Positions 25,658 through 49,914 of a stretch of 64,000 bases of DNA are shown piece after piece; within the stretch, counting starts at the first letter, position 1; every line of letters starts with the position of its first letter. The notes beneath the pieces were generated by a model. That model made no database searches, was not told where the DNA came from, and worked only from the letters and a program-made list of their open reading frames with translations. The stretch comes from Eledone cirrhosa (taxonomy: Eukaryota): contig OZ024745.1 in assembly GCA_964016885.1 (NCBI GenBank), forward strand, positions 64,108,001 to 64,172,000, read 5' to 3'. The translations under genes were made by a program, and so were the position numbers.

Positions 25658-25771
25658 ATGACAACCAGTCCAACTGGTATTCCTGGTTCAATTCACCTGA
25701 AATGGAATCCCAGGAATTTAGATATTCGAACAAAGTCAGTGGAAAAGACACTTGAACCTTTAGTTACCCAG
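25658..25771 (+). CDS. CTNNA: alpha-catenin coding exon 1 (exon starts 25635)
   Basis: ttttcag acceptor; MTTSPTGIPGSIHLKWNPRNLDIRTKSVEKTLEPLVTQ; CAG|gtaaaa; phase 0. Confidence 0.96.
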
Positions 25772-26872
25772 GTAAAAAAAAAAAAAACAATAATATTAAT
25801 ATTATTCTTTTTTATGTTTTGTCTTTTCATGTTGACTGTAAAATTCCCTGTTAAAAAAAAAAAAAAAAAAAATTCCACTGTGGATCTTAGCCAGCCAGCC
25901 AGACAGCCTGTCATACAGTTAGATTTCAGTTATCTCAATCTTTCCTCTCTCCCTCTATTTCAGATCTGTTAATTATCTTCACATCAGCCTGCAACACTTG
26001 TTTATCTAATCTTATAAACCATTCTCACATTTCATCACCATTTCTGTTGTATTCTGTAAGCAAATAAGATTTGCTATTTTATTTCTCTTTCATCATCATC
26101 ATAATTTAACTTTGGTTTTTCTATGCTGGCATGGCTTATGTATCTTTATTTATGTATTCTTTGTGGTGGAGATCCCACCCCTACCTGTTTCTTTTTTGCT
26201 TTTTTTAAAAGTATATATATATATATATCATCATAATCATCATATATCCTTTTTCCCTGCTAGCAAGTGTTGGCTAAGTTGTTACAGAACTCATCAGAAC
26301 TTAATCTTAGCTACTGACCTCTCAGTTGTGCAGGGCAGCATCTTATTTCCATACATTCCTGCCCTCTTCAGTGTGTATTGGGTGTATATTATTGTGGCAC
26401 AAGTACTAAGGCAACGAAAAAAATATCAGTCCACTACTTTAAAAAAAGTGACAGTGAGCCTGATTTGTAGGGGGTACAGTAATGGTGAGAATTGTAAGGC
26501 ATAATGTTGAATGGTGGGCATGAATGCGACGGGTTACATTCTCATATTTATAGTGTAGGCGAGTTTTCTGGTACTGCATGCTGCCAGTGGTTATGGCCCT
26601 TCATTATCTCTGTTGTGAGATTTGGTTTCCTAAAGTTGATTTTCATTAGTTCACATGTCTTTCTAGGTCTACCTGCTCTACACGTTCCATTTACTGAGAT
26701 TTTTCTGCATTCTTTGTAAAGCTGTTATCTTCCATAAGTACAGAAAAGGCAAACCTTGTAGCAGATGCACAGGGATAATTAGTAGTAAGAGCATCGGTAG
26801 AATAAACATTTCCCAATGCCAAGAAGGCTCCATAGAAATGGATGATAGCTTCTGCTACCTAGGTGATCACAT

Positions 26873-26911
<39 letters not shown>

Positions 26912-27869
26912 ATGTTCATACAGAATTGTTTTTGGCTTTCTATGGCTGGATGTCCTTCCTAACGGCAACCATATTTACGTGGACTGGCTGTTTTTTATTG
27001 TGGCACCAAAATGACCAACTGAAGGTGCTTTTTGTCCTCTCACCAATACGACCACATTACAAGGTAGACTAGGTGCTTTTTGTCATGTCACCAAATTTTT
27101 GAAAGTGGAATGAACTGAAAAAGGCATAAATGAAAAAAGAAATTATATTAGTGAATTGTATTCTCAAAGTAATTTCTTAATTTACCTCTTATATTTTCTA
27201 ATTGTCTCAAAGTAATATTAATCGTACAATAGGCTTGTACTTTTTTTTGAATTTTGTCCATAAACACTATTGTCAAAGTTTTATGCAGTACGATGATGAT
27301 GAAAGCTATCTTTTTTCTTGTATAAAATATGTCATTTGAAAGTTTATCAATAAACCACACATCACTTTATACAGTACTGCAAGGAATCATACTCCCTCAA
27401 AGACTTATTTATAGCTAACATGAATGGGTCATAGAAAGTTAAGTGTCTTTTTCCGGAACACAAACCTTACTAGCATGACGTATGACTCGTTAACCAACTT
27501 TCAACCAATTGGCCAAGAATTTAAGGTCTGTTTCTCTGACTGAGTGTTTGTGCACATCAACATTAGTGGTGACAAATGAAAGACCAATAGATACCCCATA
27601 CCAACAGGTCTCAAACTTGTGAATAGTAAACCTTTCTAATATGTTCAAAATAAGAACTTTTGTTGTTGTTTTTTTATTTTGTTCAAATGTTTGTGAAGAA
27701 TATTTTGAATTGCTTACTTTCCTTCAGCTTATGTAACATTACTGTTGAATATGTTGTTTAATTAATTTTTAGTCAGTAAACATAGATTTGATCTTTGAAA
27801 TATATTTTCTATTTATTTAAACTCTTAAAATGTAGAATGTTAATGGCTTCTAATTTATTTTTGGTTTAG

Positions 27870-28059
27870 GTCACAACACTGGTGAGTCAGAATGGTCCAG
27901 TCAAAAAGAAGAAAGGACATTCAAAAAAAGCCCACGTTCTTAGTGCTACGGTACAGAAAGCTACAGAAAACTTTATTGAACGTGGTCAAGAGATCGCAGA
28001 AGAAAATCCTGAGATTCGAGAAGACATGTTGCTTGCTGTAGAAGATGTCCGCAAAATTG
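27870..28059 (+). CDS. CTNNA: alpha-catenin coding exon 2
   Basis: tttag|VTTLVSQNGPVKKKKGHSKKAHVLSATVQKATENFIERGQEIAEENPEIREDMLLAVEDVRKI-G|gtatgt; 190 nt, ends phase 1. Confidence 0.96.
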
Positions 28060-28987
28060 GTATGTTGTTTTCAAAAGCTATTATATCAGTTTGGTTCATA
28101 TAATAGCTTAACTATTTCTCTTGCCTTCTTTTTTTTTCTCTCTGAAGGAATTTACATTGATGTGGGTATGAATAAATTTTTCAGATTTGCTGTAAATTCA
28201 TTATCTGTGATGTTATTACCTGTTAATTTCATCACTAGGTAATTATATAGTGAGTCAGTACATCAGTCATTTAATCGTCATGCTAAATGAATTGTCAGTA
28301 AATTTATCAGGTTTCTTTTTATATGCAGAGTAAATCTATCACCAAACATTCAAAATTTTATTCACAGTGTCACATTTTAACAAAGAAAACCCAAATTCAG
28401 ACAAAAATTCTATCCAATGATTTGCAATTTTTAGAAATCTTGAAAAACAAAGAAGTTATAATCAAACAGTACATTTCCAGTGCAGAATTTCTATAATGTA
28501 AAAAACAAATATAGAAATAGTGTAGAGAGAATTTAACTTATCATCAGTGGATATCAATAGTGAAATCATCATCGTTGTTTTTATATACAGTTCCTAAATA
28601 GAAATAGATGTGATGATCATGACTGAAATGCTTCTGATTATAATTCTAGTTGATCTCAGGGATATGAGATGAGTAAGCAAAAACAAAATACAACAGTTAC
28701 ATTTGCAGCCAAATATTCCAAATATACAAGATTTGTATTGATATTAAACATTTTAACTATTTCTTCTGTATCTAATTTGATACTTTTCAGAATTGCCATC
28801 TACTGCAATGTCTGAATTGATATAGTAATTGCAGCATATTTACTTTGTGGGATATTAATTACTCATGTCTTCTATTAGTACTTGAATGACAAGGCAAATT
28901 GCTAGGTTTAAATCATGGTTTTATTTCTTTAGTCCCATGTCTTATTTCCTATTAACAGTGGTTTTACTATTATTATTTCCATTCTAG

Positions 28988-29154
28988 GTGATGAAATGGG
29001 AAGAGCCTCTCAAGAATTTGCAAATGATCCATGTTCTTCTGCCAAAAGAAGTGCTATGGTTTTAGCAGCAAGAGGACTTCTCTCAGCAGTGACTCGTCTT
29101 CTAATCTTAGCAGATATGTCTGATGTGAATCATCTTCTGAAGACTTTACATCAT
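28988..29154 (+). CDS. CTNNA: alpha-catenin coding exon 3
   Basis: ctag|GDEMGRASQEFANDPCSSAKRSAMVLAARGLLSAVTRLLILADMSDVNHLLKTLHH|gtaagt; 167 nt; not in the ORF track. Confidence 0.96.
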
Positions 29155-30642
29155 GTAAGTTTAAATTTCTAACCAAATTATTTCCACAAAGAAGTGGTAA
29201 GGTGTGATCTCAGAATGCTGAAACTTTCAAAGGAAATGATAAAGGACTGTGACAAATGGCAAGAGGTTTTCTTGAAAGAGACCTATCCAACTCATGCTAA
29301 TATAGAAAAGTGAATGTATAATTACGACTATACATAATATTAAAATCTGATAGCTGCCTTTGTCTCTAAGATGTTATTAATTGATAGTCATTTAATTAGG
29401 TTTTAGCATGTTAAGAGAAGAAATTTGTATAGGTATTATAGCTTATTCTTATTCATTAGTCAAATCATGTAGATTTATGAAGTTGAACATTATCCTATTG
29501 TAGATTAAAAACAAATATTCTTCTCTGGAATGGTAATCTATCAAAGATTTTATTCCCAAGAATTTCTATGGTTTTGGCATAAAATATCTAATCAAGATAA
29601 TGCCAATTGTTCCAGACAACATCATCATCATTTTACATCTATTTTCCATGCTTGCAAGGATTGGACAGGTTGTCCTGTTCTGAAGCAAGACTGATCAGAT
29701 GACTGTGTCTCACTTGTATGTTCTGTTTTGGCATAGTTTCTACAGCTGGATGCCTTTACTAATGACACTCACTTCATGGCATGTACTGGGTGTATTTCAT
29801 CATGGTGCAATTATCTTGTTTATCCAGGTTTGTAGAATAGGTTTACCATTTCGTTATATGCCATAAGAGATTACTAAAATGGACGATATCAAAAAGGGTT
29901 TCTAGCTGCAGAACACTGTCTCAAAAAGTCCAACACAACCATGCCAGCATGCATAGGTAGTCATACAAAGATGTTAGCTCCTGGTCAGCCCTGAATTAAC
30001 AGACCTGTGATCAGTGATCTAGCTGTGACCATTCAATTTTTTTCCCTTGGAATATTACAACCATTTCCACAGTATCCAGTGTCATTTTTAGTAGGATGTA
30101 ATTAGAGGGAGATATTGTTATTTTTAGTGGTTTGACTGACCACTGTTCAGTGGCTCACATTTTCTTTTCGTTGTTCATGAAAGAAAGAAGGGTTAAGTTA
30201 ATTGGTCTAAAATTTCAACTGCACTGATGAATAGAAACTGATAGAGGATAAAAATACCTCTTCAGTGCTGTTGCAGATAGCCTCTCTCGTGATGTTTGCA
30301 TTTTAAAATTCACCCAGCCCATGGTGTAAAGTGGTTGGTCATTGAAAAATAATCTAACTATAAAAATAAACATTGTATTTGCCAGATGATGAAAGATTTT
30401 GATGAACAGTGTGATGCTGTGAGACTTGTTCAATCCATACCAACATGTAAAAAATAAAAGATGGATGTTAAAGGATGAAATATTGTTTGCTCTACTTCAT
30501 GGTGGAATAGTATCAATTATTTAGCCAAATCTCACTCAAGTTATCTCCCCTATATGTTTATAGGAATGGTTTCATCAGAAGCTTAAAGCTACGAATATTC
30601 TTTAATATGTGTGCCTTATTGTTTGTCTTATTTTTACTCCAG

Positions 30643-30762
30643 GTTGAAAATGATTTGGATCGTATAAAGAACGCTAGCAGTCAACAAGAACTGTTAGCAA
30701 GCTTTGATGACTTTGGGAAAAGTGTTCAGCAGTTGTCAGATAGAGCAGCTAAAAGACAAGCT
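30643..30762 (+). CDS. CTNNA: alpha-catenin coding exon 4
   Basis: ccag|VENDLDRIKNASSQQELLASFDDFGKSVQQLSDRAAKRQA|gtaagt; 120 nt. Confidence 0.95.
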
Positions 30763-31151
30763 GTAAGTATATCCATCTTATACACCAAAATCTTTGTCTT
30801 TGACCCTCTGATCTGCTTATATCGTATATCCAGCTTGATTTCGCTGTATACCATGGTATATATTTTAAGGTTAAGCAAAGTTAATATTTAGTGAGTTAGC
30901 TAATATATATAATATATATTTGTTATAATATTTTCAATATATTACTGGCTCATACCTATTGAGCCTGGGGAACTAAAAAAGAAAATTTAATCTTTGAAAA
31001 AATTGAACTTTGAATATGCGCTAACCTAAATATTTTCAGTCAATTCCTTAAACAACTAATGAAATTAGTTAACCACAACCCTAGTATTAAGACCCCAACA
31101 TCCTAAAATCATATTCTTTAGCAATAATGTTATTTGTTTATATTCTTTAAG

Positions 31152-31241
31152 GATTTAAAAGACCCACGCCGAAGAGATGACTTGGCTGCGGCACGTGCTG
31201 TGCTGAAGAAGAACAGTATGATGCTTTTGACCACATCAAAG
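31152..31241 (+). CDS. CTNNA: alpha-catenin coding exon 5
   Basis: taag|DLKDPRRRDDLAAARAVLKKNSMMLLTTSK|gtaata; 90 nt. Confidence 0.95.
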
Positions 31242-31389
31242 GTAATAATTTATGAATTTTGTATTATAACATGTGAAGCTTGACTGTACTTACTTAGTTA
31301 GTTAGTCACCATGATGTAAGACTTACTTATGGCTGGTTGGTTGCTTAGTTAGTCACTATGATGCTGGCTGGTTGGTTTTTACCATGATG

Positions 31390-31975
31390 TGAGGCTTCCT
31401 TACGGCTGGATGGTTAGTCTCTGTGGTATGAGGCTTACCTACGGCTGGTTAGTTAGTCTCTGTGGTATGAGGCTTACCAACTGCTGGTTAGTTAGTCTCT
31501 GTGGTATGAGGCTTGCTTACGGCTGGTTGGTTAGTCTCTGTGGTATGAGGCTTACCTACGGCTGGTTAGTTAGTCTCTATGGTACGAGGCTTGCCTGCGG
31601 CTGGTTGGTTAGTCTCTGTGGTACGAGGCTTACCTACGGCTGGTTAGTTAGTCTCTGTGGTACGAGGCTTACCTACGCTGGTTAGTTAGTCTCTGTGGTA
31701 CAAGGCTTACCTACGGCTGGTTGTTTAGTCTCTGTGGTACAAGGCTTACCTACGGCTGGTTGTTTAGTCTCTGTGGTACAAGGCTTACCTACGGCTGGTT
31801 GTTTAGTCTCTGTGGTACAAGGCTTACCTACGGCTGGTTGTTTAGTCTCTGTGGTACAAGGCTTACCTACGGCTGGTTAGTTAGTCTCTGGTACGAGGCT
31901 TACCTACGGCTGGCTGGTTCGTTAGTCTCTGTGGTATGAGGCTTGCCTACGGCTGGTTGGTTAGTATCTGCGGGG
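31390..31975. repeat. 39-bp minisatellite (about 15 units) with decayed flanking units (about 31290-32350)
   Basis: Unit AGTCTCTGTGGTAYRAGGCTTACCTACGGCTGGTT(AG/GT)TT. Confidence 0.95.
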
Positions 31976-33367
31976 CAAGATTTGCCTATGTCTTTTTTGA
32001 TTGGTTAATGTGATGTAAGGGTTTCTGTGCTTTTCTTTTACCTCATTGATGTGTAACTGTGCTGTGCAATGAAGCTTACCTAACAAATGAGTTTGTAGAT
32101 GCACTCTGAGGTTTACCTATAGTTTATTTGAAGCTATGTTGGGAGAATTGCTGTTTGAATTAGTATGTGGCTGTTCTATGACATGTCCAAAGGGTTAGTG
32201 TATAGTTGTGCTGCAATGAGGATTGCCTATCAAATTACTATGTGGCTATGCTAAGAGGTATTAGTATGTAGTTGTGTTGCTATGCTGTGAGGTAATATTG
32301 GTTTTTATTTGTGCTATGAGGTTTTCTTTTAGTTAGTTTGTACTGTACTGTGTTGTAAGGAACTTGGCAGATGGTAATTGCTTGTTGTTGGGATTCCTAT
32401 GTTTAAATATTCCAACATAATGTGCAAATGTCTTAGAATTGCTTTCATCACATCCGATAAGATGATCCTATGTTACAATACTATGAATCCAATTTTGTTG
32501 GGAAAAGGCTTATAGGCCACTGGTGTCGTCATCATCATCTAATGTCCATTTCTTCTTGCTTGCAAGAAGTGTTTTATTAAATTTGTTTTACTTAATGCCT
32601 AAACAATGTAAGTCAAAGTAATTTGCAAAAGAAGTAAATACTTTGTAGCAAATCTGGTCATCTCCTATGCCATCAAAACTGGCTCAACCCAACCTTTCAA
32701 CACATGACAGCATGTGATTTTATTCTTAGGTGATTTAATAGCTCTCATTAAACAGAAAGCTGTTGAATTATAGTTCAATAAAACTCACCCATGCTTTCTC
32801 ACTTACTCATTCACATAAGCAAAGTCTAAGATGAGTATGCTCTAACATAGGGCTGAGGAATCCTTTGCTCCTGGGTGAAATTTTTTCTCTATTTAAATTC
32901 AAAATTACCATTTGATGAGACATTTAAAAACTCAGAAAGTTTTGAGTTTCATCATCATCATTTAACGCACAATTTCCCTGCTAGCAGGCGCTTATCTGGC
33001 AAGTGGGAGATATGGGGTTCAATTCCTCATAGCAGCTGATGGCATCTTCTTTTTCCATCTTTAAGGTTCTTCACCCTATTTTATAGCATCACCATGCATT
33101 TTGAAGACAATTGTGATTTGAGGGAAATTTGACAGCTATTTTTAGCAGATCAGTTGACCATATAAAGAATTGGTTGAGAAGAAGTTAAAACTGAATGTCA
33201 GTAGGGTGAGAAAAAGTATGAATTATCTTTTAAAAAAAATAACTCAAAGACTTTAGTACTGTAGATGTTAGTAGATTTTGTATTGTCAGCTACTGTTGTC
33301 AAAATATGTCAAAATATTACAATAACCCCTCATGTAAATATACATGTCTTTTATCTGTATATTTCAG

Positions 33368-33541
33368 GCGTATGTGCGACATCCGGAACTTTCTGCAGCC
33401 CGGGAGAATCGTGATTTCGCCTGTAAACAAATGTGTGATGCAGTAAATTTAATTTCCGATGTAGCACAGGCAGCTGGTGTTTCTGATGTCCACCCTTATG
33501 AACACCAGGGAGAACTAGCTGCTGCCCTTGATGAATTAGAT
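33368..33541 (+). CDS. CTNNA: alpha-catenin coding exon 6
   Basis: ttcag|AYVRHPELSAARENRDFACKQMCDAVNLISDVAQAAGVSDVHPYEHQGELAAALDELD|gtaagt; 174 nt. Confidence 0.96.
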
Positions 33542-33579
33542 GTAAGTATTCCACAAATCCTCTTTTTTGTGTCTCTCTT

Positions 33580-33824
33580 TATCGATTGAAAAGATCCCAA
33601 ACCTCATTCGCTTACTAAGTGGGGTGGAACTTGTCAAAGTGAACCAAGGAGACACTGTTTCCATTGGTCTTTCTATTGGTGATATTATCTGCCGGTCACA
33701 TCTGGCAGAAACAACGTGAAATAGTGTCTTGCTCAAGGACATAACACATCACCGGGTCTGGGAATCGAACTTGTAACCTCACGATTGTGAATTCATTTCT
33801 CTACCCAGTAAGCCATGCGCCTTC
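33580..33824 (-). mobile_element. tRNA-derived CORE-like SINE (family A head, different tail)
   Basis: Reverse complement: ggcgcatggcttactgggtagag..gttcgattcccagacc..gtccttgagcaagacact. Confidence 0.7.
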
Positions 33825-34042
33825 ACTTTATGTGTTCAGCAATTGTTTAACACAAGTCCACAACTCTACAATGTACATGGAATGGGCGATATCTCTGCAG
33901 GACGGTTTTATCCATCAACAACAATAATCTTTTTGGTCATTCTTTTCTAAATTAGTAATCATTATCTCTGTTTAACGTCCATTTTTTTTCCATGTTGGCA
34001 TAAATTCTTAGTTGTGATCTAATTACATTTTCTACCTTTCAG

Positions 34043-34246
34043 CAAAAACTCATAATGGATCCTCTGGCCTATAATGAAGTTCACAGCCGGCCATCTCTGG
34101 AAGAACGTTTGGAGAGTATTGTTAGTGGTGCAGCCATCTTAGCAGATTCTTCTTGCACCCGGAATGATCGACGTGACAAGATCATACAAGAGTGCAATGC
34201 AGTCCGAGAGGCATTACAAGATTTGCTCACAGAATATATGGAAAAT
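34043..34246 (+). CDS. CTNNA: alpha-catenin coding exon 7 (M1, vinculin-binding region)
   Basis: ttcag|QKLIMDPLAYNEVHSRPSLEERLESIVSGAAILADSSCTRNDRRDKIIQECNAVREALQDLLTEYMEN|gtaaga; 204 nt. Confidence 0.97.
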
Positions 34247-35223
34247 GTAAGAAATTTGATTTTTTTTTTCCCCTACATTTTCATGTTTTTCATTGAAACT
34301 TTGCAAATAAAGAAACTGGATTTTCTGGTACCGAAAGAGTCAGAGATTTGGCTGCTACTAAACATAATGAAGCAGGACGGATCCTCTGTACCCTTGATAT
34401 CAGTGTAATCTTACACATACAAGAATATGGGATGGTGTGGTCTGCTTTATGAGGGTTGACCTGGGATAAACAACTAGGTTTGATACCCGAATTCACAAAT
34501 TAACGGTGGTTAAAGGCAGTTCCCAGGTCAATACTAAAAATGTCCAAATATTATTCTCTCCTCTTTGTGAAAATGTGTGGCCTAATGATTAGGTTGTTAA
34601 ACTCCTGCTCATAAGGTTTTGGGTTGATTTACTCTACCAGGTGGTGTGTTATGTCCTTCAGCATTTCACGTTACTATAAAGTGGTAGTGCTGATGGCACG
34701 ATGATATATGCCCAAATCATGCTGTAAAAGATTATCAGCATTTAATGTCTATTTGCTTGCATAAGTTAAATGGGTTGTCACATTCTGAGATTAGACCATG
34801 GGTATCTGATCTCTCTAACCTTAGAACATGATGATTTATCCAACCAATGCCAGCTTGGACAAGTAGACATAAAATGGTCTTTTACTTTAATCTGATTTGA
34901 AATATTTATGAAGGCATTCTAGTCTTTTATTTTTCTGGTACCTATAAATTAAAGCACCAGTGAAGTACTAGGTTGATTTATAGTCATATAATGCATCCTA
35001 GATGTGAATGAAATTCTTACAGGGAAAAAATATCTATAATAAATAGTTCCATTTTCACCCAAACTTCATGAGTTACAAAAAAAAAAAAAAAAATAAAACC
35101 ATTGTCTGTGATCATTGTTTTTTTTTTTTTTTTGTGTGTTTTTTTATGTTGAATATTATATCATTTTCTCCTTTGCCCCCACCTTTTTTGTGTTGATGTT
35201 TGTCAACTTTTTGTTCTAAACAG

Positions 35224-35259
35224 TGTCGTGGCAAGAACAAACTTCATTCAAAAAATCAG
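35224..35259 (+). CDS. CTNNA: Candidate alternative 36-nt microexon of alpha-catenin (CRGKNKLHSKNQ)
   Basis: About 150-nt AG-free pyrimidine-rich tract, aaacag| acceptor, CAG|gtaatc donor, phase 0-0 like the flanking exons, no stop. Confidence 0.6.
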
Positions 35260-36011
35260 GTAATCTTACTTAGAACACTTCTAAAATGTTTTTAGAAGTT
35301 TCTAGTATATGCTATTGTTTTATAAACATGAAACAACAGCCAAGCTACATTGGTTTCTGGTAGGGTCTAATATATTTAATATAGTGAGTTAAAAATCTTT
35401 GCATAACTGGGGATATCCATGCTATTATTAGACAAAAACTCATTCCAGGGATTTTTAATTTCTAAAAACAAATCTTGAAAAGGAGAAAAATCCAATGAAA
35501 TCAATTGAAATTTTGGAAAGTCTAGAAAATGGATGGAAGTAGATCTGGTTTTCAAAGTCAACTGGTGAATTCAGATGTATTGTTTTATTAGGCCTCATGG
35601 ACTAAGTATACTCTAGTCAGTAGGTCAGACAAAGAGTGACCAATATAAATATATACCTCATCATATGTCCACTTTTCCATGCTGGCACAGGTTTGATGAG
35701 CCTTACAGACCAAAATACCATATCAGAGTTACTGTCTTGCAGAGGTCAGGGCAACATGTCTTGCTTAATATATTCCGCTTTAGCATCATTTTTATGAATG
35801 GATATCCTTCCTAATGCCTACCACTTTATAGAGTTTATTGGGTGCATTTTAGCATGATGTTAGACATATGACAACCTCTCTAGTGCTGTTGCCATGATAA
35901 AATACATCAAATAGACTCTGCAGAAGTGATACAGCAGGGACATGAACTCTTCAATAAAGTGTAGCATTGGTGCCACGATAAAATGTTTTCAGACTCAGTA
36001 AAATGTTTGGT

Positions 36012-36045
<34 letters not shown>

Positions 36046-37494
36046 AAATGTGCGAAAAGTCCACAAGAAAATACAATAAAGGAGAACAATCCAGTACATG
36101 ATATGTATATATAATGTAGTGGTGCTGAATTAGAATTTTAGAATATGATTTGATGAAATCTCATAATATTAAAATATATCTGTTACTTACACCAGTTGAC
36201 TTAGAGAGCACAGATCCACTTCTATACTGCATTTTCTTTATTTTCCAACTTTACAATAAAATTAGATATATTGGAATTGTCTCCCTTGCTCGTTTTAGAT
36301 TTTATATACCCTTAGAATGAAAGATTTCTTTTTGGCTACTAAATTACATGGATAAACTGGGTTAACCAGATGTTCAACTCATTATATTAAATGTGAGAGA
36401 TTTTTACTGTATTTAGTATGCAGAACATTCTCTTGGGGTATTTTCCCTCAGTGATAGTTTGTGTATTCTTTTAACCTACTTGTAGTTTATGCATGAATTA
36501 ACTTGCATTCTCTTCATATTTTTGTACAGTTTTTACTTACGTATTCAGAGTTGTTTTCTAATCTTGTTATTGCCCAGTTTTCAGGAATCTAACAATTTAT
36601 TATTCAATATGATTAATTCTTCTTCGAGGTTTTAACATGCATTATGAAGGCAAAAATAACAAATACTAGTAATAATAAATGAAAACAAATTTCTGATTGT
36701 TATTCCTTATGTGAGTTTTAGCTGAATATTTCTATCTAGTTTATAAGCTAGAGACATTAAAATCAATTTTCCCTATTTTCGCTAGTTGAGGAGGATATTT
36801 TTTTAGCAAATTCACAGAGTTGTCGACTTTACTAAATGAATATTTCCCACCCTTTCTATTAATTCAGTGGTAAAGAATGGAATCGTTTGTATTATGATTG
36901 ATTAGCTGAGGACATACAGAGTTATGTACCTTAGTCAGGGTTTTTATTACAATTGGTGTAGAAATTGTTACAAAGGCTCCCTGCAGTTAAGTGTTTCATA
37001 AGTTATTTTAGCATAATAATATGTAAATTGATCCACTTATGGCATTGTCATCCTCATGATTATAGCAATGCTAAATATTTATGCCAATATTTTGGATGTA
37101 AGTTGAAGCAAACTAATATAACTTAATTAATTTAGTTGGTTTTATTCTTTTAACTGGTTTCAGTCCTTCAACTGCATTGTGGGGCATTGCCATGAAGGGA
37201 TTGTGTTGATTACATAGAAATCAATATTTTGGTATTTTATTTATAGACAGAGGATGACAAAAGGCAGAGTGGATGGCGTATAAAGGGAAGAGTTTACAAT
37301 TGGTGGAAAATAGTAATTGCGTGTAATATCGTAATTTTCTCTATCATATATATATTGCTGGCATTATAACTGGATGGTAATACATGACCATCGATATATC
37401 CCCATGATTGCATATCTATATCTTTGATTGTATGAGCATCTCATGAAGTCACATGCATAACTATGTAACAGAAATATATATATATCATGCACAT

Positions 37495-37833
37495 GGCTTA
37501 GTGGTTAGAGCATTGGCCTTGCAATTGAAAGGTTGCGAGTTCAATTCTCAGACCGGGTGATGTGTTGTTTCCTTGAGCAAGACACTTTATTTCACATTGC
37601 TCCAGTTTACTCAGCTGTAGAAATGAGATGATAGGACTGGGGTCCATATCATTCCACTGCAAAGTAGTCGTGGAGGTGCCACGGCAAAAAAGCACCCAGC
37701 ACTCACTGTAAATGAGGTTGGTGTTAGGAAGGGCATCCAGCTGTAGAAATCAAGCCAGCATCAGTTCCCGTCCCACTCTTGCAAGCAGGGAAAAAGTGGA
37801 CGTAAAATGAAATGATGATGATGATGATGATGA
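37495..37833 (+). mobile_element. Composite SINE: tRNA head + CORE-like block + GGTGC..GCACC hairpin + (GAT)n tail
   Basis: tggcttagtggttagagc..gagttcaattctc..ccttgagcaagacact..ggtgccacggcaaaaaagcacc..ggcatccagctgtagaa..gatgatgat. Confidence 0.75.
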
Positions 37834-38005
37834 AAGCAATTATGGTAAAGTAACTCCATCTTAACCACTCCTAGATAGATAGATACCTTCTGTGTCCTAT
37901 TAGTTCTGCTCTAGATATATTCTCTATACAAATAGAGTGAGAAATTTTGTTGACTGTTCGATGAAAATGTATCTTTCAGAGTGAATAAGCTTTGATGTTC
38001 CTTAA

Positions 38006-38213
38006 CTCTTTAGCATTTAAACTGGCTCTATCCGGCCAGAATTCTCTCACCTCTTTCTGTTCAAACCAGCCGCTCATACTGATGTTAAGGTATTGTTCTC
38101 AAAATAAATATCAAAATCTCATAGATTTGATATTATGCGAGATAATTATGCAAGGTAAAGCCTTTACCATGAAAATATAATAGTAAATATAGAATAATGT
38201 GAATGCTAAAGGG
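38006..38213. mobile_element. piggyBac-like MITE
   Basis: TTAA TSDs at 38002-38005 and 38214-38217; TIR C(T)CTTTAGCATT / AATGCTAAAGGG; homologous to 14484-14695. Confidence 0.8.
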
Positions 38214-39286
38214 TTAATATTAGGTATTTACTGCCTTATAGTATTGTTTCAATACACTGATTTAAAAATCATTGTGAGGATGAATATTCCCTTTGTCTTT
38301 TCTGAAATACCAGTTACATCTTGGGATTGATTTAAATTAACTATAACTATATTGTACCTTGTATGAAATAATTGGCCTGGTGTTGTATAATATCAGCATG
38401 TTTAGCTTTAGTTTACAGCTTTGTTTATGTTTTCAGAATGATATTTGGATGCTACTACTAAGATGTAGATTTTTGCACATATCTACCCAACAAACAATTT
38501 GACAAATTTAACTTCTAGTGTATGGCTTTAACGATTTTACTTTATACCAGAAATTAAATGTCTTGGAGTAATGGAGCTGGACAATTTAAATTTTTAAAAA
38601 TCTATTGCTTGTTTATAAAGTATTTCTTGTCTTTATGCTTAATAATTTATGATAGTACTTCTGAAACAATTGACTTGTCTATTTTGTGGTTTGCTGAGAG
38701 CAAGCTGCTAAATATGTATTTTTATAGAGAATTTTACTATTTTATGTATGTTCCTTATTGTTTTTGTTTCATCTATTTTTTTTACATTTTATATCACTTT
38801 TTAAGTTTGTAACATTTATTTATGTATTTTATGTGTGTGAAAATATTGTTCTTCAGTCTAACCATAGTCAACATTGATAGGACATATTGACTACCACAAA
38901 GGTAGTCAATGAGACTGTTAAAAGCAACCCACAACTCCCACATCTTACATTTCCAATTTGTTTATTTTTGTTGAATTTCACTGTTTCCCAGTTATATGAT
39001 CCAGAAACCAAGTCTACTGTACAGCATTTTGGGGGTTTTCCATCCTAAACTCAAATTGACTCAAGTAATGCGAGTGAAACTAGGTGGAAGGAAACCATGG
39101 AAACCCTGAGAGACAGTAGCTGAAATTTAAAGAAGTAGTCACACAGTGATACACTGATTTTGCAGCCAATCTATAGCTCTCTTCTAGCATTACACCCACT
39201 TATTGATGTCCCATCACATTACCCATATTCATACTGTCAATATTCATACCTTTACTTCTGACACAAAGAGATAGATTTGTACACTA

Positions 39287-39787
39287 TGTAGTGACCTACA
39301 TTCCGCGGGTTCACATACATTCTCTGTGCGTGATTTGGCTCAGCTCAGCCAATCAGCGCCAGTAGAAGAGGATGTATCCCTACACGTTCTGAGGGAGAAA
39401 TAGCCCGCAAAGATTTGAGGACGCCATCACTTCCAGGCTAGAGGACTTCCAGGCTTGACCATGCTAAGTAAACACTGCTTGTTCTTTTGCTCCGCCAGCG
39501 CAAACAATATGTAACGACAAAACATTCCTATGGAGCTGGCTAAACGCCTCCAACCAGTTGACCGTATTTTCTCTTGTAATCTTAATTGAATTATTTTATT
39601 TCTCTTGGCATGCCAGCTCAACCTCTGTTAATAAATAATGTAAAACCAAGCTAAAAGTCGTTGTCAATATTCCTATTATATCTTTCTACCAAACCTGGTT
39701 ACTCGTGGCAACCTTACCAACTTCTAAATACTTCTCTGCTAAATTGGAATAAACATCTTCAACCAAATTGGTGACTTATATTCAACA
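39287..39787 (+). mobile_element. Possible solo LTR (or intronic promoter island)
   Basis: Starts TGTAGTGA and ends TTCAACA, CpG-rich against its background, CCAAT box, two AATAAA; no TSD found. Confidence 0.4.
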
Positions 39788-41005
39788 ATTGTGTTTACTG
39801 TCACCAGTAAAATGAGATGTATGTCATGAGTGCAGAAGGCTTGCAGTGGTTGAAAAGGAATAAGATTTTCATGTTCCAATGGATGTTTAATGTCAGTGTG
39901 CATGAATGACAAAGCACAATTGAACTGAGAGAAAAGCTGTGTATAAGAGGAATGAGATAGTGTGAAAGAGAGAATTGCACTGGTATAGATATGTAATGCT
40001 TAAGGAAAGTGAGTTAAATAATGTGCTGGACACTTGAAATAGATGGAACCTGTCAAAGAGGGTGGCTAAGGAAAACATAGTCAAAAGTTATGAAGAATAA
40101 CATCACAAAATTGTACTTCAATAAGGAAATGATGCCGAATTTAGTTGACTGGTGACTTGTTGTATTACAAATGGCTGCCCATCAAGCAGTATATCACTGC
40201 AATTCTAAAAGTAAATATGATCACCTGGATTGGAGAGATCTATTTTAGCCTGCAGTTGATAAAACGTTTCTAGTATTGGTATCATAGTACCTCCTTTAAA
40301 GTAGTGGATACATACACCAAGGCAATGTCGGGTAGAGAGGACTCTTAAGTACTGTCAACGACATGACCACTTCTCCAGTGATGGTGCCATGATAAAATGC
40401 ATCCATTACTCCCAATTGAATGAGAGGACCCTTTTATTTTACTGAGTGCATGACAACCTTCCTAGATTACCAACCTCTCTAATGTGATTGCATGTGGTTC
40501 AGTACTATAAAACATACTAGATTACTCTCATCTTGTGAATGGTCAGCTTATTTTCTATGACTATCCTTTATATTTTGTTTATTTTTGAGTAGTAGTGCAC
40601 CTGGGACTCCATTATTTAATGTCCTTTTTTTAATTCTAGTGTCGTTTGAAAGATTTTGCTAATGTTACTAATGGTTCAAGTAACCACCATGTAGAAATTT
40701 TCTTCTTGGCCCATTACATTTTAGGTTGAAATTATTTCTGTGGTAATTATTTTGTGGTGCACGTGTACATGTCCTACCTTCTGCAGAAATTAATATTGTC
40801 CAAGCTCAAGATATGCAAATGTATAGAGAGGTGCAGTCTTTCACTGATACTTGCTCATTAAGTCTCTCTCTCTGTCTTCCTTAGTCTCCCTTGCATGCTC
40901 TTTCTTCTCTCTCTTCCCCAATCTCTTGTTCTTTCTGCTTTTCTTGCTCTTTCCACTCTCTCTTGTTCTTTCTCTCTTCTCCCTTGTTCTCTTTCAGTCT
41001 CTTCC

Positions 41006-41191
41006 TCTCTCTCACCCTGTCCCCTCCCTCTCACCCTGTCCCCTCTCTCTCACCCTGTCCCCTCTCTCTCACCCTGTCCCCTCTCTCTCACCCTGTCCCC
41101 TCTCTCTCACCCTGTCCCCTCTCTCTCACCCTGTCCTGTCTCTCTCACCCTGTCCCCTCTCTCTTGCCCTGTCCCCCTCTCTCACCCTGTA
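41006..41191. repeat. 19-bp pyrimidine-rich minisatellite (about 9 units) within a CT-rich tract
   Basis: Unit TCTCTCTCACCCTGTCCCC. Confidence 0.92.
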
Positions 41192-44100
41192 CTCCTTCTC
41201 TGTGTCTTTTTTTTTTTTTTTTTGCAGTATTAAATTAATGAAACTGACATGATTGCAACAAACTATAATTGTTGGTTGGTAAAATAGAAGTAAAATAAAA
41301 TTAAATATATGAATTTAATAACTGGAAAGTAACGGCTTCAAATTTCAATCTATAAAGTTCATTATTTTTATATTTTTTATTTATTTATTAATTTTTGTAT
41401 TTGATTTGTTTCTTTTAATTTCTTCTTTTAATTTGTTTAAATGTTTCTTTTAATTTCTGATTCACAACTTCATTTCTGAATTTAATTTTTCAAAACATCT
41501 CAGCTTTATCAATTAGATTTTTTTTTAGAGAAAAACAAAACAAACAAAAAAAAAAAAAAAAAGGAAAGAAATAACAGTAGAAATTGAATCCAATCAGAAT
41601 TGCTATCTTTTGATTCTGCAGCCATGAATACATTAATACTTGACTTCAGTAAAAAAAAAAAAAAATTCAGAAAAATGTCAACCTAAGCCAACCAGCAAGG
41701 ATTTGTTAACGGGTGAATTGATAGAGTTCGCCTCCAGGCATCATTCTTTCTGCATTAAACATATAACTACTGAAAATTGTGAAACACATTTTGTTTCATT
41801 TTGAGATTGATTCCGAGAATGTGTTTTGGTATCTCCAAATTAGTAATGAAGCTAAGAAATTCGATAAATTTTACATTTTTCTTTTAAACAAAAATTAGTA
41901 AAAATATTTAAAAAAAACATTTTAAAATAAAATTATAAAAATCTTATTTTTAATCAAATTATTTTGATATGTATACAACACAGCTTGAATACCAAATGTC
42001 ATATGCAAATCAAACTATGTTTTGTAACATTAAAAATTTAAGCATGAAAATACAAAATGCTCTAGAAATATACTTCGACACAAAAATATTCAGACACCAA
42101 ACATTTCTTTTAGATGTTGCTAGCAATGGTAGTAGTTTAAAATACATTATAATATTGGCACTATAAAAAATATAAAGAAGGGTTTCTTCTTATCTTCATA
42201 TATTGACTTTTTGTTGAATTATAAGGGCAAATATTTCTCTGGATCATTTAATGATATGGGGTATGGGTTCTTAATAAAGAGAAGCATACAAGTTTATTGT
42301 TGTCATCGTCGCACCAACATGCTTGTATGCACATTTAATAATGTACTTGAAACACTATTTTGTCATACAGATGAGCTCCTAACATTGGGAATGACCATGG
42401 AAGCATGGTTAGTGGTTTAGTAGATTACTTCACTCATAAGGTACCAGGTTTGATTCCACTTGAATTTCAGGCCAGTGTCATTTACCATAGCTTCTGGTTA
42501 GTCTAAGTCTTTTGAATGAAATCGGATAGACAGAAACTGTTTGAAAGACTTTTGGATGGATTGTATGTGTAAATCACGTTGTTTCTGAGAATTACATTAA
42601 GTACATGTCTTTGAAATATTCAGCCAAATGCATATTAATTTAATGACTCAAATGTTCAGTAGATTGAACAATTGTCTGATCATTGTTGAAACTGATAGAA
42701 CTTAATAAATTTAACACTTGAGCAGTAAATAAATGGGTCACATCATTAATTCATTTTCATATATTGACAACAAATTTGTCTGTATGGAGTTCATTTCTTT
42801 CTGACTATACCAGAAAATTGCAGATACAAGGAATAATTTTGAGGAAATAATTGGACTTAACCAAGAGTCAAACCAACATAACATGCTCTTCTTGCTGAGA
42901 GTTTCTTTATTATTCTGATTCAGTCTTTCCATTCTTAATTCATAAAACTTCACAATTCTTCACTTTCTATTTATTTCTAATATTTATATATGGCTGTACT
43001 ATTTTTTCCATGCGTCATCTCTTAGTCATTTTGCTTTGTTGGGCCTGATTTGGTGAATGTTTTTGTTTCCTTTTTAATAAAATGCCCCATGTTCATGTCT
43101 CCCATTTTCTTCTTCTGCTTATCCTAGAAGGAATTTCTTTTCAAAAAGCAAAACCTAACAATCTAATTTCTCAGTTTTTATTTTATTGCCATAAATTTCA
43201 GAGAAAACTTAAAATGTACCTTTATTGCTAATGAACTATTAACAAAAGCATTAAGCCCACAGTTGAAATATTTATATTTAGAATTTTTGTCTTTTACTTG
43301 TCCATGCTAGCTTGTGTTCACTCAAGTATGATTTATTTTCAAATTGATATATTTGTACAATTTATTTGTAGCATCGACTTTGTAGCTTATTAATCCTTTT
43401 TAAACACTCACAAGTCGTTCTTAAAGTGGGTGTAGCATTTATTTTTAGTTCGGTTTAGGATGTTAAAGATCACTTTATTTTTGTTATTTGCTAAAACTGA
43501 ATTTCATGCACCACCACCACCACCACCACCACTTCCATCATTCCTTTCATCCAACATATCCAACCACTACACAGTCAGATGCCACTGTTTTTGTTTGTTT
43601 GTTTCATTGCTCAAGTATTTAAAACTAGAGTAGTTAGAAATTTCAAAATCTTTTTCTGGATTTTTAGCAAGTTATTTAGTTATGTTAATGAACAATATAT
43701 GGTACAGTATGTGTAATGTGAGTTGTTTTATTTTGTTGGGTGGGTGCTCTTTGTTTTTAGTATGTGCCATGCGAATGCTCTAGTGTTAGGCAGTGATTGT
43801 GTAGAGTATGAACTATGTGGGTTGTTATATTGGGTGATGATTGTATAGGGTGTGGGTTATGTTTATAATATTAGGTGGGTATTGTGTAAGTTGTGCTAGA
43901 TATTGGATGTATTTAGGAGCCCCATGAGGTGGAGGTGGCTGTTTTAGTGGGTCCTGCTGGCAATTATCTGCAGAAATGCATTTCCAGCTTTGTCTGGGGG
44001 GGGGGGGTGCAGCCGAAATACCATGGGACGGATGACCAGAGTGAATTGGTCCACTGATAGCATACACTGTAGGCCAGAGAACAAGGAAAGGAGAGGGCAC

Positions 44101-46889
44101 CTAACCTCATTTGTCAGGGTGATTCTAATTTTGTGGTGTTCCTTGACTGATCCTAGGTGATTTACCATTCCAGATGGGACCTTTTTGACATGTTTTTTAT
44201 CTGTTGTTACCTTCTTACTCAATCATATAGCCCTTTTATTGTTCCTAACATCTTGGGCCCTTGTGGCCAATTAAAGTATTAATATTATCATTATCTTTAT
44301 TAGTTGAAATCTCATATGTCCATTGACCATGCTAGTATAGGGTGGACTGAGATGTAATCTACAAAAATTATCATAATTGATAGGTGGTGTGTTGTGTCTT
44401 ATATTTTCACAGTATATGTGAGCTCCATTAAATAAGACAACCCTCTGACTAATTGATTTCTGTTACAACCCTAAGTTTTAACTACTTATATCACTAATAG
44501 TCCAGAAGAAAGACCAGCTATACCTCATATGGTCTTATTTTCCTTCCTGTATATAAGGCTTTTATTTTTTACATTTGTTTTTCTTTACTAAACTAAAAAT
44601 ATCTTTTTCTTTATCAGTAAGATTGCTTTTATAAATTATTTATAATATAAATTTTATAATCTTTATAAATTTGATAATGGAATTTAATAAACAAAACTAC
44701 TCTTTCATCTGTAATTACTGAAACTCACAATATTCTTTTCATTTATATATTTTGCTCCTTTCCTTTATTCTTCTCTTAAAATTTAGCCTCTTTTTTACTT
44801 TCTCTCATTTGGTTATTTCAGTATACTCATTTATCTTTTTAGCAGTAAAGATTGTACAAGAATGGTAAGCTATAGAAAGCATGAACATTTAGTTGCTGTT
44901 ACTTGTTTTAATTTTTAATTTTTATTTTTAAAATCAGTTTTGTTTGGCTTTTCCAAAAATTAACTAGGGCACCTATATTGTAATTAATAATTATGTTCAA
45001 TTTTTCATTATTTCATACTCTTCCTCCTCCTCATGATCATTGTTGAAACACATAACTTACTGTATTTATTCTAGATCTCTATGCTCTGAGTTCAAATCTT
45101 GCCATAGTCCAATTTAGTTTTCTTTCTTCTGTGGTCATTAAAGAACTGGTGTTAATAAAATCTATTATTCCCTCATTCTAAATTTCAAACCTTTGTTTTT
45201 GTTTGAAAAGATTATTATTAATAATGTGATGTAGTGGCAAAAAGGATAGAATGTCGGACCTAAATATTTTTTGCCGCATTTACTTTCATTCTATTATGTT
45301 TTGGTTCAAATCCCGTTAGTCTTGCCATATCACTCCTTACAAATGTGTTGTAAACTAATAATTCATCATATAAGTTCAATCCAGTGTGTCCAGAGCAGGG
45401 ATCTGTGTCAGCATGTAAGATTTCAGGAACAGAAAAAAAGTTTGGATTACAAATTATTTAAGGAAGAAATAAAGGAGAGTTTAACCCTTCATTCAACACA
45501 AACTGGCTTTTATAATAAATGTTATTTTCCTTACCTTTCTTTTTTCTTTGATCCTTTGTTTAATGAAGGACAATTATCCAGAATTTTGAACTCTTCTCTG
45601 TTTCTTCCGTACAGTGTAAAATTAATTTATATTGTACTCTTTGGTTAAAAAAAAAGAAACATGTTTTTTAAATGTTCTTACAAACATGTGGCCTTAGTGC
45701 CCATATGAGAAATCAATATCATTATTAATCTTTTTATCTAATATATTTTCTATTCTATCAAGCTTAACATTTTTCTTTATTCTGAATGTTTGTGTTTTTT
45801 TCTTGTTTAACTGTTTCTAAATATTGCTGACATTTTCCCCTTCCTTCACCATACGTAGGCTAAAGCTAGAACATTTCATCATAAATCAATATTTTCTTTG
45901 CTCAGATAAGCAATAATTATATAGCGATATATGAATACATAGTGAAATATAGCAAATTTTAAAAAAATGTGAATTTAGTGAAAGGCAGGAATTGGTTGGG
46001 AATGTCTTTATGGCTGCTGAGTCTGTTAAAACTTGCAGTCAAATGTCTCAAATGACACCATCTTAAAAATGTAAAGACATTGATGGGTGGTAGTTAATTA
46101 TTTGCTTGTTTGAATATCACCACCTGGTTCTTGGATTCTTTCAATGAAGTTCATGATATATTTTGGCCCAAGTCATACAGGTCTTGATATATGTCCTGGA
46201 CAGTGCCATTCTTTCTGACAAATTGATTAAAAAAATGTCTTGCATAAAAAAAGGTATGGTATTTTATTACAGCTCATCTTGATCAGGACTTACATGGGTT
46301 AATAGCTGGGTTTATTTAAATTCCAACACTTTCTGGAATAGGTTCTCATTGCCTAAAGCTAAATAAATAAATGCTTATTAGATTGAAATTTTGTCCCCAG
46401 CCAATGAGGGACTTATACTTAAAAGGTTGGAACCTCCTTCCCTCTTCTTTTCATACCAGAAACTTATGAGGATGCATTTGTGCTGAAAATATAATTTACT
46501 GGTTTATTTATATGCAGCATATATGAAATCAATGTTTTGAACTAAATGTTTAAACAATTTTGTTTTTCATATGAACATTTGAGCAGTTGTCAATATAAGT
46601 GAAGATATCCTTACACATGCAACTGTTTGTCCTCCTAGAAATAGTTGCCAAAAATTCTTCAAATCATACACTTGAAACAGTTTGGACATATTGGACTATA
46701 TGTTCCTAATTAAAGGGGGAAAAGATAGGGTTAAACATGGTTGGAATGCCTTTGATAATTTGTCTGCTTCATCAGTGCTTGTCTATCTATAAGCAACAAC
46801 TTTTTGTCTTTGAATTGATTGATGATATCTAATTATCAATGATTGAATCTATAGTGGAGAATACCAGATTTGAAAACAACTGGGTTTAA

Positions 46890-47954
46890 ATTCCAACACT
46901 TTCCGTCCTATTTCAAACACTTTCCGTCCTATTTCAAACACTTTCCGTCCTATTTCAAACACTTTCCGTCCTATTTCAAACACTTTCCGTCCTATTTCAA
47001 ACACTTTCTGTCCTATTTCAAACACTTTCCGTCCTATTTCAAACACTTTCTGTCCTATTTCAAACACTTTCTGTCCTATTTCAAACACTTTCTGTCCTAT
47101 TTCAAACACTTTCTGTCCTATTTCAAACACTTTCTGTCCTATTTCAAACACTTTCTGTCCTATTTCAAACACTTTCTGTCCTATTTCAAACACTTTCTGT
47201 CCTATTTCAAACACTTTCCGTCCTATTTCAAACACTTTCTGTCCTATTTCAAACACTTTCTGTCCTATTTCAAACACTTTCTGTCCTATTTCAAACACTT
47301 TCTGTCCTATTTCAAACACTTTCTGTCCTATTTCAAACACTTTCTGTCCTATTTCAAACACTTTCTGTCCTATTTCAAACACTTTCTGTCCTATTTCAAA
47401 CACTTTCTGTCCTATTTCAAACACTTTCTGTCCTATTTCAAACACTTTCTGTCCTATTTCAAACACTTTCTGTCCTATTTCAAACACTTTCTGTCCTATT
47501 TCAAACACTTTCTGTCCTATTTCAAACACTTTCCGTCCTATTTCAAACACTTTCCGTCCTATTTCAAACACTTTCCGTCCTATTTCAAACACTTTCCGTC
47601 CTATTTCAAACACTCTGTCCTATTTCAAACACTCTGTTCTATTTCAAACACTCTGTCCTATTTCAAACACTTTCTGTCCTATTTCAAACACTTTCCGTCC
47701 TATTTCAAACACTTTCCGTCCTATTTCAAACACTTTCTTTCCTATTTCAAACACTTTCTTTCCTATTTCAAACACTTTCTTTCCTATTTCAAACACTTTC
47801 CGTCCTATTTCAAACACTTTCCGTCCTATTTCAAACACTTTCCGTCCTATTTCAAACACTTTCTTTCCTATTTCAAACACTTTCTTTCCTATTTCAAACA
47901 CTTTCTTTCCTATTTCAAACACTTTCTTTCCTATTTCAAACACTTTCTTTCCTA
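46890..47954. repeat. 21-bp minisatellite (about 50 units)
   Basis: Unit TTTCAAACACTTTCYGTCCTA; it produces the spurious KVFEIGQ and FKHFLSY ORFs. Confidence 0.98.
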
Positions 47955-48809
47955 TCAGCACTTAATATAACTATTGGCACATAAAACTATTAATATTTAA
48001 TATTGTTCTTATCAATAGTGTTCTCATCATCCCACCCTGAATAAATATTTGCTAATTCATTGATATAATCCATTAAAAAGAAATATATAATCAGAACAAA
48101 TGTTGTAGTGCTCTTATACTCAACTCCACTCTATCCAAACAGTGAGGCTGATGTTTGGTGACAATGCATAATTTTATCACAAAACCTAATTTCTTATCAT
48201 ATTTCTACACTATGTATGTGTTTAGATTAATTTTAGTCATGAAGAGTTTGATGGGATTTAGTAATATAACTAACCTTTCTCATTAAGTTACTGTTTGGAA
48301 TATATAAGATTAAGATTATAATTTAAAATTTAGATATGTGTACTTCAAAGGTTTTTGTATCCTATACATAGGTGGTCTCAAGGGGGCTCGTATAAAAAAA
48401 GCAAATAAGGGAGGGGCATATTGAATAATATAGTTCTAGACAGGGTGGGGGTGCCTAGAATGCCTTTTATAGTAAGTCTACTCAGTTAGATTTTGACCTG
48501 AGACTAAACATATTTAAGATGTATCTAAATGAGAAGTATATACTTTACAACTACTTCATTTGTTCAAGTCTTATTGCTGTCATTTCTGACAGGTTGAGTG
48601 ACCACATAGACTTCTTTGCTTGCTTGAGGTACCTGTACATGTAGATACAACTGGTCATTATAAGCAACAGTGCTAATGGTGGTATCTACCTCATGCTGGC
48701 TATTTGTAGGTCAATGTAACAGTTGATTGTGTTGGGGATAGATGGATACTGCCTAGCACTGGTGAGGGGATATGAATTATTGATTTCTACAGCTAGTAGT
48801 AGTATGACA

Positions 48810-49480
48810 GCTAACTTGGCTAACTGTGACATTGGCTGATGTGGCTTGCTGTGTTATCAGTCAAGATGGCTAGCTGTGACATTGTTCAACGAAGCTCATT
48901 GTGTTATCAGCCAGTGTGGCTTGTGGTGTTGTCAGTCGATTTAGCTAACTGTGACATTGGTTGATATGACTCAGTGTTATCAGCTAGTATGGCTGTGATC
49001 CTGGTCGACATGACTCAGTGTTATCAGCCAATGTGGCCTGTGGTGTTATCAGTCAACATGGCTAACTGTGATCTTGGCCGACATGACTCACTGTTTTACC
49101 AGCCAATGTGGCATGCTGTTTTACCAGCCACCTTGGCTAGCTGTGACATTGGTCAATATAACTCATTGTGTTATCAGCCAATGTGGCTTGCTGTTTTATC
49201 AGTCAATATGACTTACTGTGTCATCAGCCAATGTGGCTTGCTGTGTTATCAGCCTACTTGGCTAACTGACATCAGTTGATGTGACTTGCTGTGTTATCGG
49301 TCAGCTTGGCTAGCTGTGTTATCGGTTGATCTGGCTTAGTATGTTATTGGTTGACATGGCTTGCTATAAAATCTGTGAATGTGGATCACTGTGAGATTGG
49401 TCAACATGGAACGGTATGGCATTGGTCGATGTGGATTACTGTGTTATCAGTCGACATAGCTTGCTGTAACATTGGTTGGC
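48810..49480. repeat. Degenerate ~26-bp tandem repeat
   Basis: Recurrent ctgtgttatcagccaatgtggcttg / ctgtgacattgg modules. Confidence 0.75.
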
Positions 49481-49914
49481 AAAGCAAAGTTATTGCAAGA
49501 ATCAATTACATATATGGTATACCTGTTATCTTTAATTTGTTTAATATGGTGAAATAAGGGGATTTTGAATGTTTTATGTTGCTTATACATTTAATGTCAC
49601 CAACTTAAGAGAGTAAATGTGCTCCTTTTCATTTTTCTTTATTTCATTTTTTCTTATTGTTTTCTTTTATTTTTTTTCTGCACAAGGGAAATTAAACTGG
49701 ATCCCTCCCCCATAAAATAAAATAGAAAATACTATTTGCTTAATTCATGATGAAAATTTCTGTTATTTCAAAGACCATTTTCCAATAGGAATCAAACTTT
49801 TATTTTCATGATTTTCTTTTGGTCTCATCAGATTAGATCTTGGTAAATATTGTATGAATTAGTAGCACAGTATACTATGTATATATACACACACACACTG
49901 TATGTACATATATA

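Follow-up and report, generated by a model that had tools for sequence, protein, structure and literature searches.

We report a 36-nt cassette microexon in the alpha-catenin gene of the octopod Eledone cirrhosa, where it adds a Cys-first insert at the end of the vinculin-binding segment of M1. Most of the transcripts sampled skip the microexon and a minority contain it; we consider it almost certainly a real alternative exon, very probably of a single lophotrochozoan origin. Its range is unusually deep and its position is telling. Our reading as a whole is that of a conserved cassette microexon with minority inclusion, probably in muscle or nerve, whose longer loop likely eases the opening of M1; taken in all its parts, this reading has in our estimation an even chance of being right. 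The analysis covers a window of 64,000 nucleotides from contig OZ024745.1, and all positions below refer to this window.

A microexon at the vinculin-binding segment of alpha-catenin

Alpha-catenin is single-copy, with one match in the genome (Table 1). Both the sequence and the fold of the M region place the gene in the alpha-catenin family (the fold matches 4IGG and 5XFL), and no relatives were found in prokaryote or viral sequence collections. The constitutive exon upstream of the microexon is 97-99% identical to the alpha-catenins of Argonauta and Octopus and aligns to residues ~287/288-354 of human alphaE-catenin (PDB 6upv_M), with PDB sequence matches at E 1e-28. Because this alignment spans residues 288-354, the original prediction was right to map the junction to residue 354/355 of alphaE-catenin. 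The alphaE-catenin fragments found in complex with vinculin, 4e17_B and 4e18_B (4E17, 4E18), end two residues past this junction.

Table 1. Features of the alpha-catenin locus, in window coordinates.
Feature	Position	Strand	Properties and evidence
Host alpha-catenin gene	25658..54408 (approximate ends)	+	tblastn with P0002; coding exons for residues 1 to ~444, remainder beyond the window
Upstream constitutive exon	34043..34246	+	68 aa, phase-0 donor gtaaga, both M1 vinculin-binding helices; matched without mismatch by the X19 spliced contig
AG-free U/UG-rich zone 5' of microexon	35073..35221	+	149 nt
Microexon acceptor AG (cag)	35222..35223	+	read from sequence
Cassette microexon	35224..35259	+	36 nt, phase 0-0, encodes CRGKNKLHSKNQ (net +4); spliced orthologue in a contig of run X24; inserts of orthologues in P0002, P0121, P0127
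Microexon donor gtaatc	35260..35265	+	GTAA/GTAT donors in 7 orthologous loci
Downstream constitutive exon	50799..50879	+	27 aa, phase 0; rest of loop and start of M1 helix 4; skip junction 34246->50799 in X19

The microexon itself reads as claimed, with a cag acceptor, a stop-free phase 0-0 exon and a gtaatc donor. It falls within the ≤51-nt limit for microexons, has canonical AG/GT splice sites and preserves the frame; some authors set a stricter limit of 27 nt, which it exceeds. The zone upstream had been described as about 150 nt of T/C-rich sequence free of AG. The absence of AG stands, and the composition (74 T, 39 A, 20 C and 16 G) is rich in T more than in C. The zone contains an A17 run at 35077, a T16 run at 35118 and 12 TGT, and its best branch-like element is TTGAT at -31. 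As an AG-free gap it ranks tenth longest among 3437 on the + strand, and the AG-free lengths at the eight other coding acceptors of the host gene are 27-76 nt. Since comparable sites arose in 1, 6 and 7 per 200 Markov simulations of the 16.5-kb intron (orders 1, 3 and 5, respectively), the sequence alone is suggestive rather than decisive, and the case for the exon rests on its conservation and on RNA contigs.

Other features of the window were also inspected. Elsewhere in the genome, 56 nt (L002, G000:C14) match the T-rich portion of this zone at 82%, probably by low-complexity chance. A nested LRR gene in the intron at 34247-50798 was rejected, the 14 ORFs of at least 90 aa being by eye repeats, the exon itself or noise; the vertebrate counterpart of this intron nests long single-exon LRRTM genes, and the window intron has no such ORF. 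A second in-frame candidate of 27 nt at 43026-43052 was likewise set aside, having a counterpart in none of the proteins seen. An acceptor-like site at 40996-41227 has a CT-rich AG-free zone of 230 nt, with no matching insert in the proteins seen, and at 46855-47984 lies a ~1.1-kb tandem repeat of a 21-nt unit that is AG-free for 1091 nt, is open in several frames and looks non-coding. Long ORFs at 3-1199 (-), 2920-4641 (-) and 5004-7232 (+) look by eye like remnants of reverse-transcriptase retroelements.

Transcripts include and skip the microexon

Seven of 24 listed runs, which carry no labels of run type or tissue, were compared (X19, X20, X1, X11, X3, X16 and X24); X20 is genomic and the junction in X11 lies outside the count. 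One of the five readable junctions includes the microexon. A spliced contig of X19, identical to the window, joins position 34246 directly to the exon at 50799, and contigs of X1, X3 and X16 also skip. The inclusion form comes from X24, a related octopod, in which the same upstream exon is followed by the orthologous microexon, the contig ending after 36 letters. These contigs bear out the claim of a real microexon that is alternatively used, though at the level of individual junctions the outcome is divided: the skip junction is present in E. cirrhosa itself, and the inclusion junction was found only in the relative. Inclusion was not seen in E. cirrhosa, for which there is one spliced contig, of the skip form; contigs drop minor forms.

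Both forms are present in oyster RNA assemblies, where inclusion accounts for at most 8 of the 133 contigs counted (15 of the 35 members of the main skip cluster being listed), and four oyster proteins from RNA assemblies carry the exon (P0014, P0016, P0017 and P0349). In a Sepia-type cluster none of 93 contigs include it, and all 13 listed proteins skip (15 of 19 members listed). Because so few oyster contigs and no contigs of the Sepia cluster include the exon, inclusion appears to be a minor or tissue-limited form.

The exon is conserved across Lophotrochozoa

An insert at this junction is present in 85 of 270 scored non-vertebrate proteins, and in 44 of these it begins with Cys (24 distinct peptides). 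The Cys-first inserts occur in cephalopods (three Octopus species and Sepia, although the Sepia model probably runs on into the intron), bivalves (oysters, Ruditapes, Mya and Mytilus) and gastropods (Lymnaea, Physella, Aplysia, Biomphalaria, Elysia, Patella, Haliotis and Gigantopelta), as well as in a chiton, the brachiopod Lingula and Lamellibrachia. Most species with the insert also have a skip isoform, and paired isoforms were found in O. bimaculoides, O. sinensis and O. vulgaris among the cephalopods, and in oysters, Mya, Mytilus, Patella, Haliotis, Gigantopelta, Biomphalaria, the chiton and Lingula. Some inserts are present in single gene models only, e.g. P0067 of Lamellibrachia, and those of P0163, P0191 and P0200 were set aside as probable mis-predictions with intron-like sequence.

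The Cys at the first position is the most conserved feature, and the rest of the peptide cannot be aligned between classes. Constraint beyond the Cys is weak, since the X24 microexon is identical to that of the window at 26 of 30 visible letters and all four differences are non-synonymous. The insert had been described as a basic 12-mer, which is accurate for the window copy; across species, basicity is only a tendency. Net charge is positive in 22 of the 24 distinct Cys-first inserts, with 84 basic and 10 acidic among 333 residues, and is 0 in O. bimaculoides and Lamellibrachia. Insert lengths are 6-27 aa overall and 8-27 aa among the Cys-first proteins. In a set of four proteins (P0009, P0143, P0047 and P0161), Saccostrea uses two donors, giving an insert of 10 or 12 aa, and the long inserts of Haliotis and the chiton contain a Val where an older donor may lie; the 5' splice site thus seems to be where inserts grow or shrink.

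To define the exon in genomic DNA, for which 64 metagenome-contig loci served as material, we used a rule set post hoc: an AG, a Cys codon with K/R as the second or third residue, an exon in frame and a GTAA or GTAT donor. The count excludes cDNA-like loci, loci whose introns are very short and loci in which the exon is split. The rule matches exactly once per intron in all eight lophotrochozoan-type introns (the window, L004-L008, L010 and L012; 27 kb), of which L004/L008 and L007/L010 are related pairs. Searched with the same rule, 13 other introns (35 kb) and the remaining introns of the window gave no match, and 62 kb of reverse strand gave one. Two of the loci, L007 and L010, resemble clams; three (L004, L005 and L008) have their closest matches among annelid proteins, and L006 and L012 stay unassigned. 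Seven of the eight loci write the Cys codon as TGT and one as TGC, with TGG never seen. L004 and L008 encode an identical 10 residues with two synonymous changes, and the 60 nt upstream match at only 23 positions, which argues for selection on the coding exon. Conservation is found in other molluscs and reaches beyond them to a brachiopod and to annelid-like loci.

Inserts at the same junction in insects and vertebrates

Insects also carry an insert at this junction, of 9-12 aa, basic and without Cys, which we found in termites, crickets, ants, wasps, bugs, thrips, beetles and hoverflies. It is a discrete exon in L018, L021, L025 and L026, is present in an RNA assembly (P0243) and ends in GGKR-like residues. 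The insect microexon measures 27-36 nt (L018:9141-9170, L025:11137-11163), with a gtaaat donor and, in two loci, AG-free zones of 65-78 nt. The listed proteins of amphioxus, myriapods, springtails and barnacles have no insert.

Among vertebrates, ctnna2/alphaN-catenin of Xenopus tropicalis (NP_001090774, A4IGI7, cDNA AAI35121; P0334) has a Cys-first insert of 12 aa, and two X. laevis models (P0270, P0347) have a Cys-first 12-mer as well; it is absent from the listed isoforms of four other frog genera and of amphioxus. The Xenopus insert resembles the octopod exon in its junction, its length and its first Cys. It differs in being aromatic and of net charge 0, and cannot be aligned beyond the first residues. 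The lophotrochozoan, insect and Xenopus peptides do not align with one another, and the use of one intron by these three lineages makes it a test of whether such microexons recur or descend from a common ancestor.

A further 60 or so vertebrate CTNNA2 inserts in RefSeq and Ensembl (P0198-P0312) are, judging from their sequences, probably annotation artefacts. The 60 non-Xenopus models of 12 aa yield 59 different peptides, 21 of which start with Val, and there are often two per species. They resemble the Xenopus peptide more (6.6 of 12) than they resemble one another (4.3 of 12), and we infer that they arose when the Xenopus protein was aligned to a very long intron. Dozens of database isoforms of vertebrate CTNNA2 are therefore probably false, and we rejected them as evidence of deep conservation. 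A 13-aa insert in ostrich CTNNA3 (P0185) may be the same kind of artefact.

Splicing signals around the microexon

The original prediction counted long AG-exclusion zones as typical of regulated microexons. As a general feature of this exon the long zone finds no support: it is 16-48 nt in seven orthologous loci versus 149 nt in the window, to whose copy its length is peculiar. A different element recurs downstream. GCATG occurs within 150 nt downstream of the exon in six of the eight loci, with 1.2 expected from the same loci (P about 1e-4, for a motif chosen post hoc and with two related locus pairs included), and ACTAAY, a QKI-type motif, in three of the eight (0.5 expected). Neither follows the donor of the upstream constitutive exon in 10 loci. 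The window copy has neither nearby, its nearest sense GCATG being 593 nt downstream, and it may have been rewired to U/UG-binding factors.

Downstream TGCATG marks micro-exons enhanced by RBFOX in brain, muscle and heart (PMC4317164). By analogy, enrichment of inclusion in muscle or neural tissue is somewhat favoured. The assignment to muscle or nerve stays unproven, because the RBFOX-type motif is present in six of eight loci and yet missing from the window.

Predicted effect on the M1 vinculin gate

The M1 bundle is unstable, and once it has unfurled vinculin can engage its two central helices (PMC6814714); what keeps it closed is ascribed to salt bridges between M1, M2 and M3 (E277-R451, R326-D536 and D503-R551; PMC6814714, PMC8091058). 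None of these named bridges lies in the loop that receives the insert, and the binding helices themselves are untouched. An AlphaFold model of the exon-containing isoform of O. bimaculoides (built from 35 sequences, with mean pLDDT 68.9 and pTM 0.36) is weak in M1 (pLDDT 40-70) and matches 5XFL over the M region with a TM of 0.83-0.86. In it, the helix at 326-354 ends at the inserted Cys354, followed by low-confidence coil at 355-372 and a helix at 373-420. The inserted Cys is thus predicted to end the second vinculin-binding helix, with the other insert residues in a disordered loop, so that the loop between helices 3 and 4 would grow from ~6-7 to ~18-19 residues. This helix end and the alphaE-catenin alignment agree in placing the insert directly after the vinculin-binding helix, as had been claimed.

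We propose that inclusion of the exon, which is probably confined to particular tissue, for instance muscle or nerve, would lengthen the loop after the M1 vinculin-binding helix. The longer loop would cost ~1 kcal/mol of closure entropy, letting the force-gated bundle open somewhat more easily, and vinculin access would then shift several-fold rather than switch. The invariant Cys would likely add a modifiable thiol at the helix end. Textbook loop entropy puts the closure cost of the insert at 0.8-1.4 kcal/mol, which is small against the reported 475-fold autoinhibition of full-length alpha-catenin (PMC6814714), suggesting that the insert is a dial and not a switch. In Drosophila embryos, M1 is reported to be dispensable for adhesion (PMC9757846). 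A measurable effect of the insert on M1 opening or vinculin binding falls a little short of an even chance. A stronger version, in which a splice switch at least as old as Lophotrochozoa, or possibly Bilateria, places a modifiable Cys and a basic loop at the hinge of the vinculin gate and so sets the tension threshold of muscle or nerve junctions through splicing and thiol chemistry, with insects and Xenopus having retained or re-invented the exon, seems unlikely.

Other roles for the insert have to be weighed against this gate-tuning proposal. It is conceivable, though rather doubtful, that the Cys and the basic residues form a membrane or redox tag, S-acylated or oxidised, with little direct effect on M1 mechanics. 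The Cys is kept in all 24 distinct lophotrochozoan Cys-first inserts despite their varying length and sequence, nearly all of them net positive, and an exposed Cys beside basic residues is predicted in a disordered loop; an invariant Cys with nearby K/R in such a loop resembles lipid-anchor motifs. Against this, the model puts the Cys where a helix ends within a folded region rather than at a terminus, some lophotrochozoan inserts (O. bimaculoides, Lamellibrachia) have no net charge, the insect exon has no Cys, and a literature search on alpha-catenin palmitoylation gave nothing for the insert site.

It is more improbable still that the insert acts independently of vinculin by making or removing a site for a different partner, or by forming, with the Lys/Arg that follow it, a signal for nuclear import, an idea compatible with that of a membrane or redox tag. 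Some inserts are strongly basic (CRRRKK.. in the chiton, CKKPAIKKK in Patella, net +6 in clams), the insect inserts arrive independently at their basic ends, and rewiring of interactions is a frequent effect of alternative microexons that lie in disordered regions (PMC4317164). However, the shared motif is only C-x-K/R and the octopus inserts are weakly basic.

The exon could also be tolerated filler in a permissive loop, kept by its splicing signals (TG after the acceptor), which we think improbable. Its fast non-synonymous change in octopods, its variable length and its minor share of the assemblies would suit this account, as would the unrelated inserts that the same loop accepts in insects and Xenopus. 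Frame, position and Cys are nonetheless maintained across molluscs, the brachiopod and annelid-like loci, with TGT or TGC the only codons, and both the purely synonymous change between L004 and L008 and the conserved downstream GCATG speak against it. Finally, that the Cys-first inserts are artefacts of aligning the Swiss-Prot alphaN-catenin of Xenopus to other genomes, as the vertebrate 12-aa models seem to be, is refuted for octopods, oysters and seven genomic loci, and is almost certainly wrong in general, since the invertebrate exon is present in RNA assemblies (X24, oysters) and in unannotated DNA and is stable within clades.

Significance and comparison with known systems

Among the tension sensors of adherens junctions, the M1 region of alpha-catenin has been studied best, and differences between paralogues and in salt bridges have so far been held to account for its tuning. 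The natural, long-conserved insert at the end of its vinculin-binding helix provides a ready isoform pair on which to use force spectroscopy, and illustrates how an animal that has a single alpha-catenin gene could adjust the sensor from tissue to tissue. The insert isoform is already present in automated RefSeq and ENA models. A full-text literature search, in which subscription papers were thinly covered, found no paper describing it, and ctnna was not found in 12 supplementary files of PMC12626424.

Exons of the eMIC type, the neural microexons dependent on SRRM3/4, are marked by long stretches free of AG, by UGC close to the acceptor, by UCUC tracts and by a strong CUAAY branch point (PMC8797185; bioRxiv 2024.09.17.613571). 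The window copy resembles them in its long AG-exclusion zone, which the seven orthologous loci lack, and in its extended pyrimidine tract, and differs in the other elements: its 150 nt upstream contain a single TGC, at -50, one TCTC/CTCT and no CTAAY, and thus neither UGC near the acceptor nor UCUC enrichment. Because UGC is missing from about a quarter of true eMIC targets (bioRxiv 2024.09.17.613571), its absence lowers the probability of an eMIC exon without excluding one. In the fly table of PMC8797185 (one file), the only alpha-Cat exon is of 61 nt.

The RBFOX-enhanced micro-exons of ≤51 nt described by Li et al. 2015 (PMC4317164) are likewise short, frame-keeping cassettes that encode disordered peptide near interaction sites. 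The (T)GCATG downstream of the exon in six of eight lophotrochozoan loci is a further likeness, from which the window copy departs in having no such motif nearby; no alpha-catenin case was found among the RBFOX-enhanced micro-exons.

The inserts at this junction also fit the pattern of 'type I convergence', in which exons recur at one protein position (bioRxiv 10.64898/2026.09.05.749416). The main text of that preprint does not mention catenin; because its data include octopus and several insects, the exon may be listed in its supplements.

The closest functional comparison is with tuning of the M1 gate in alphaT- versus alphaE-catenin (PMC8091058) and HMP-1 (PMC11406289), which concerns the same force-gated vinculin site. 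Thresholds differ between members of the alpha-catenin family, at about 5 versus 15 pN (PMC8091058, PMC11406289). Unlike this tuning by paralogues and salt bridges, the microexon would allow a single-copy gene to vary the gate by splicing, through a loop that lies outside the known salt-bridge network.
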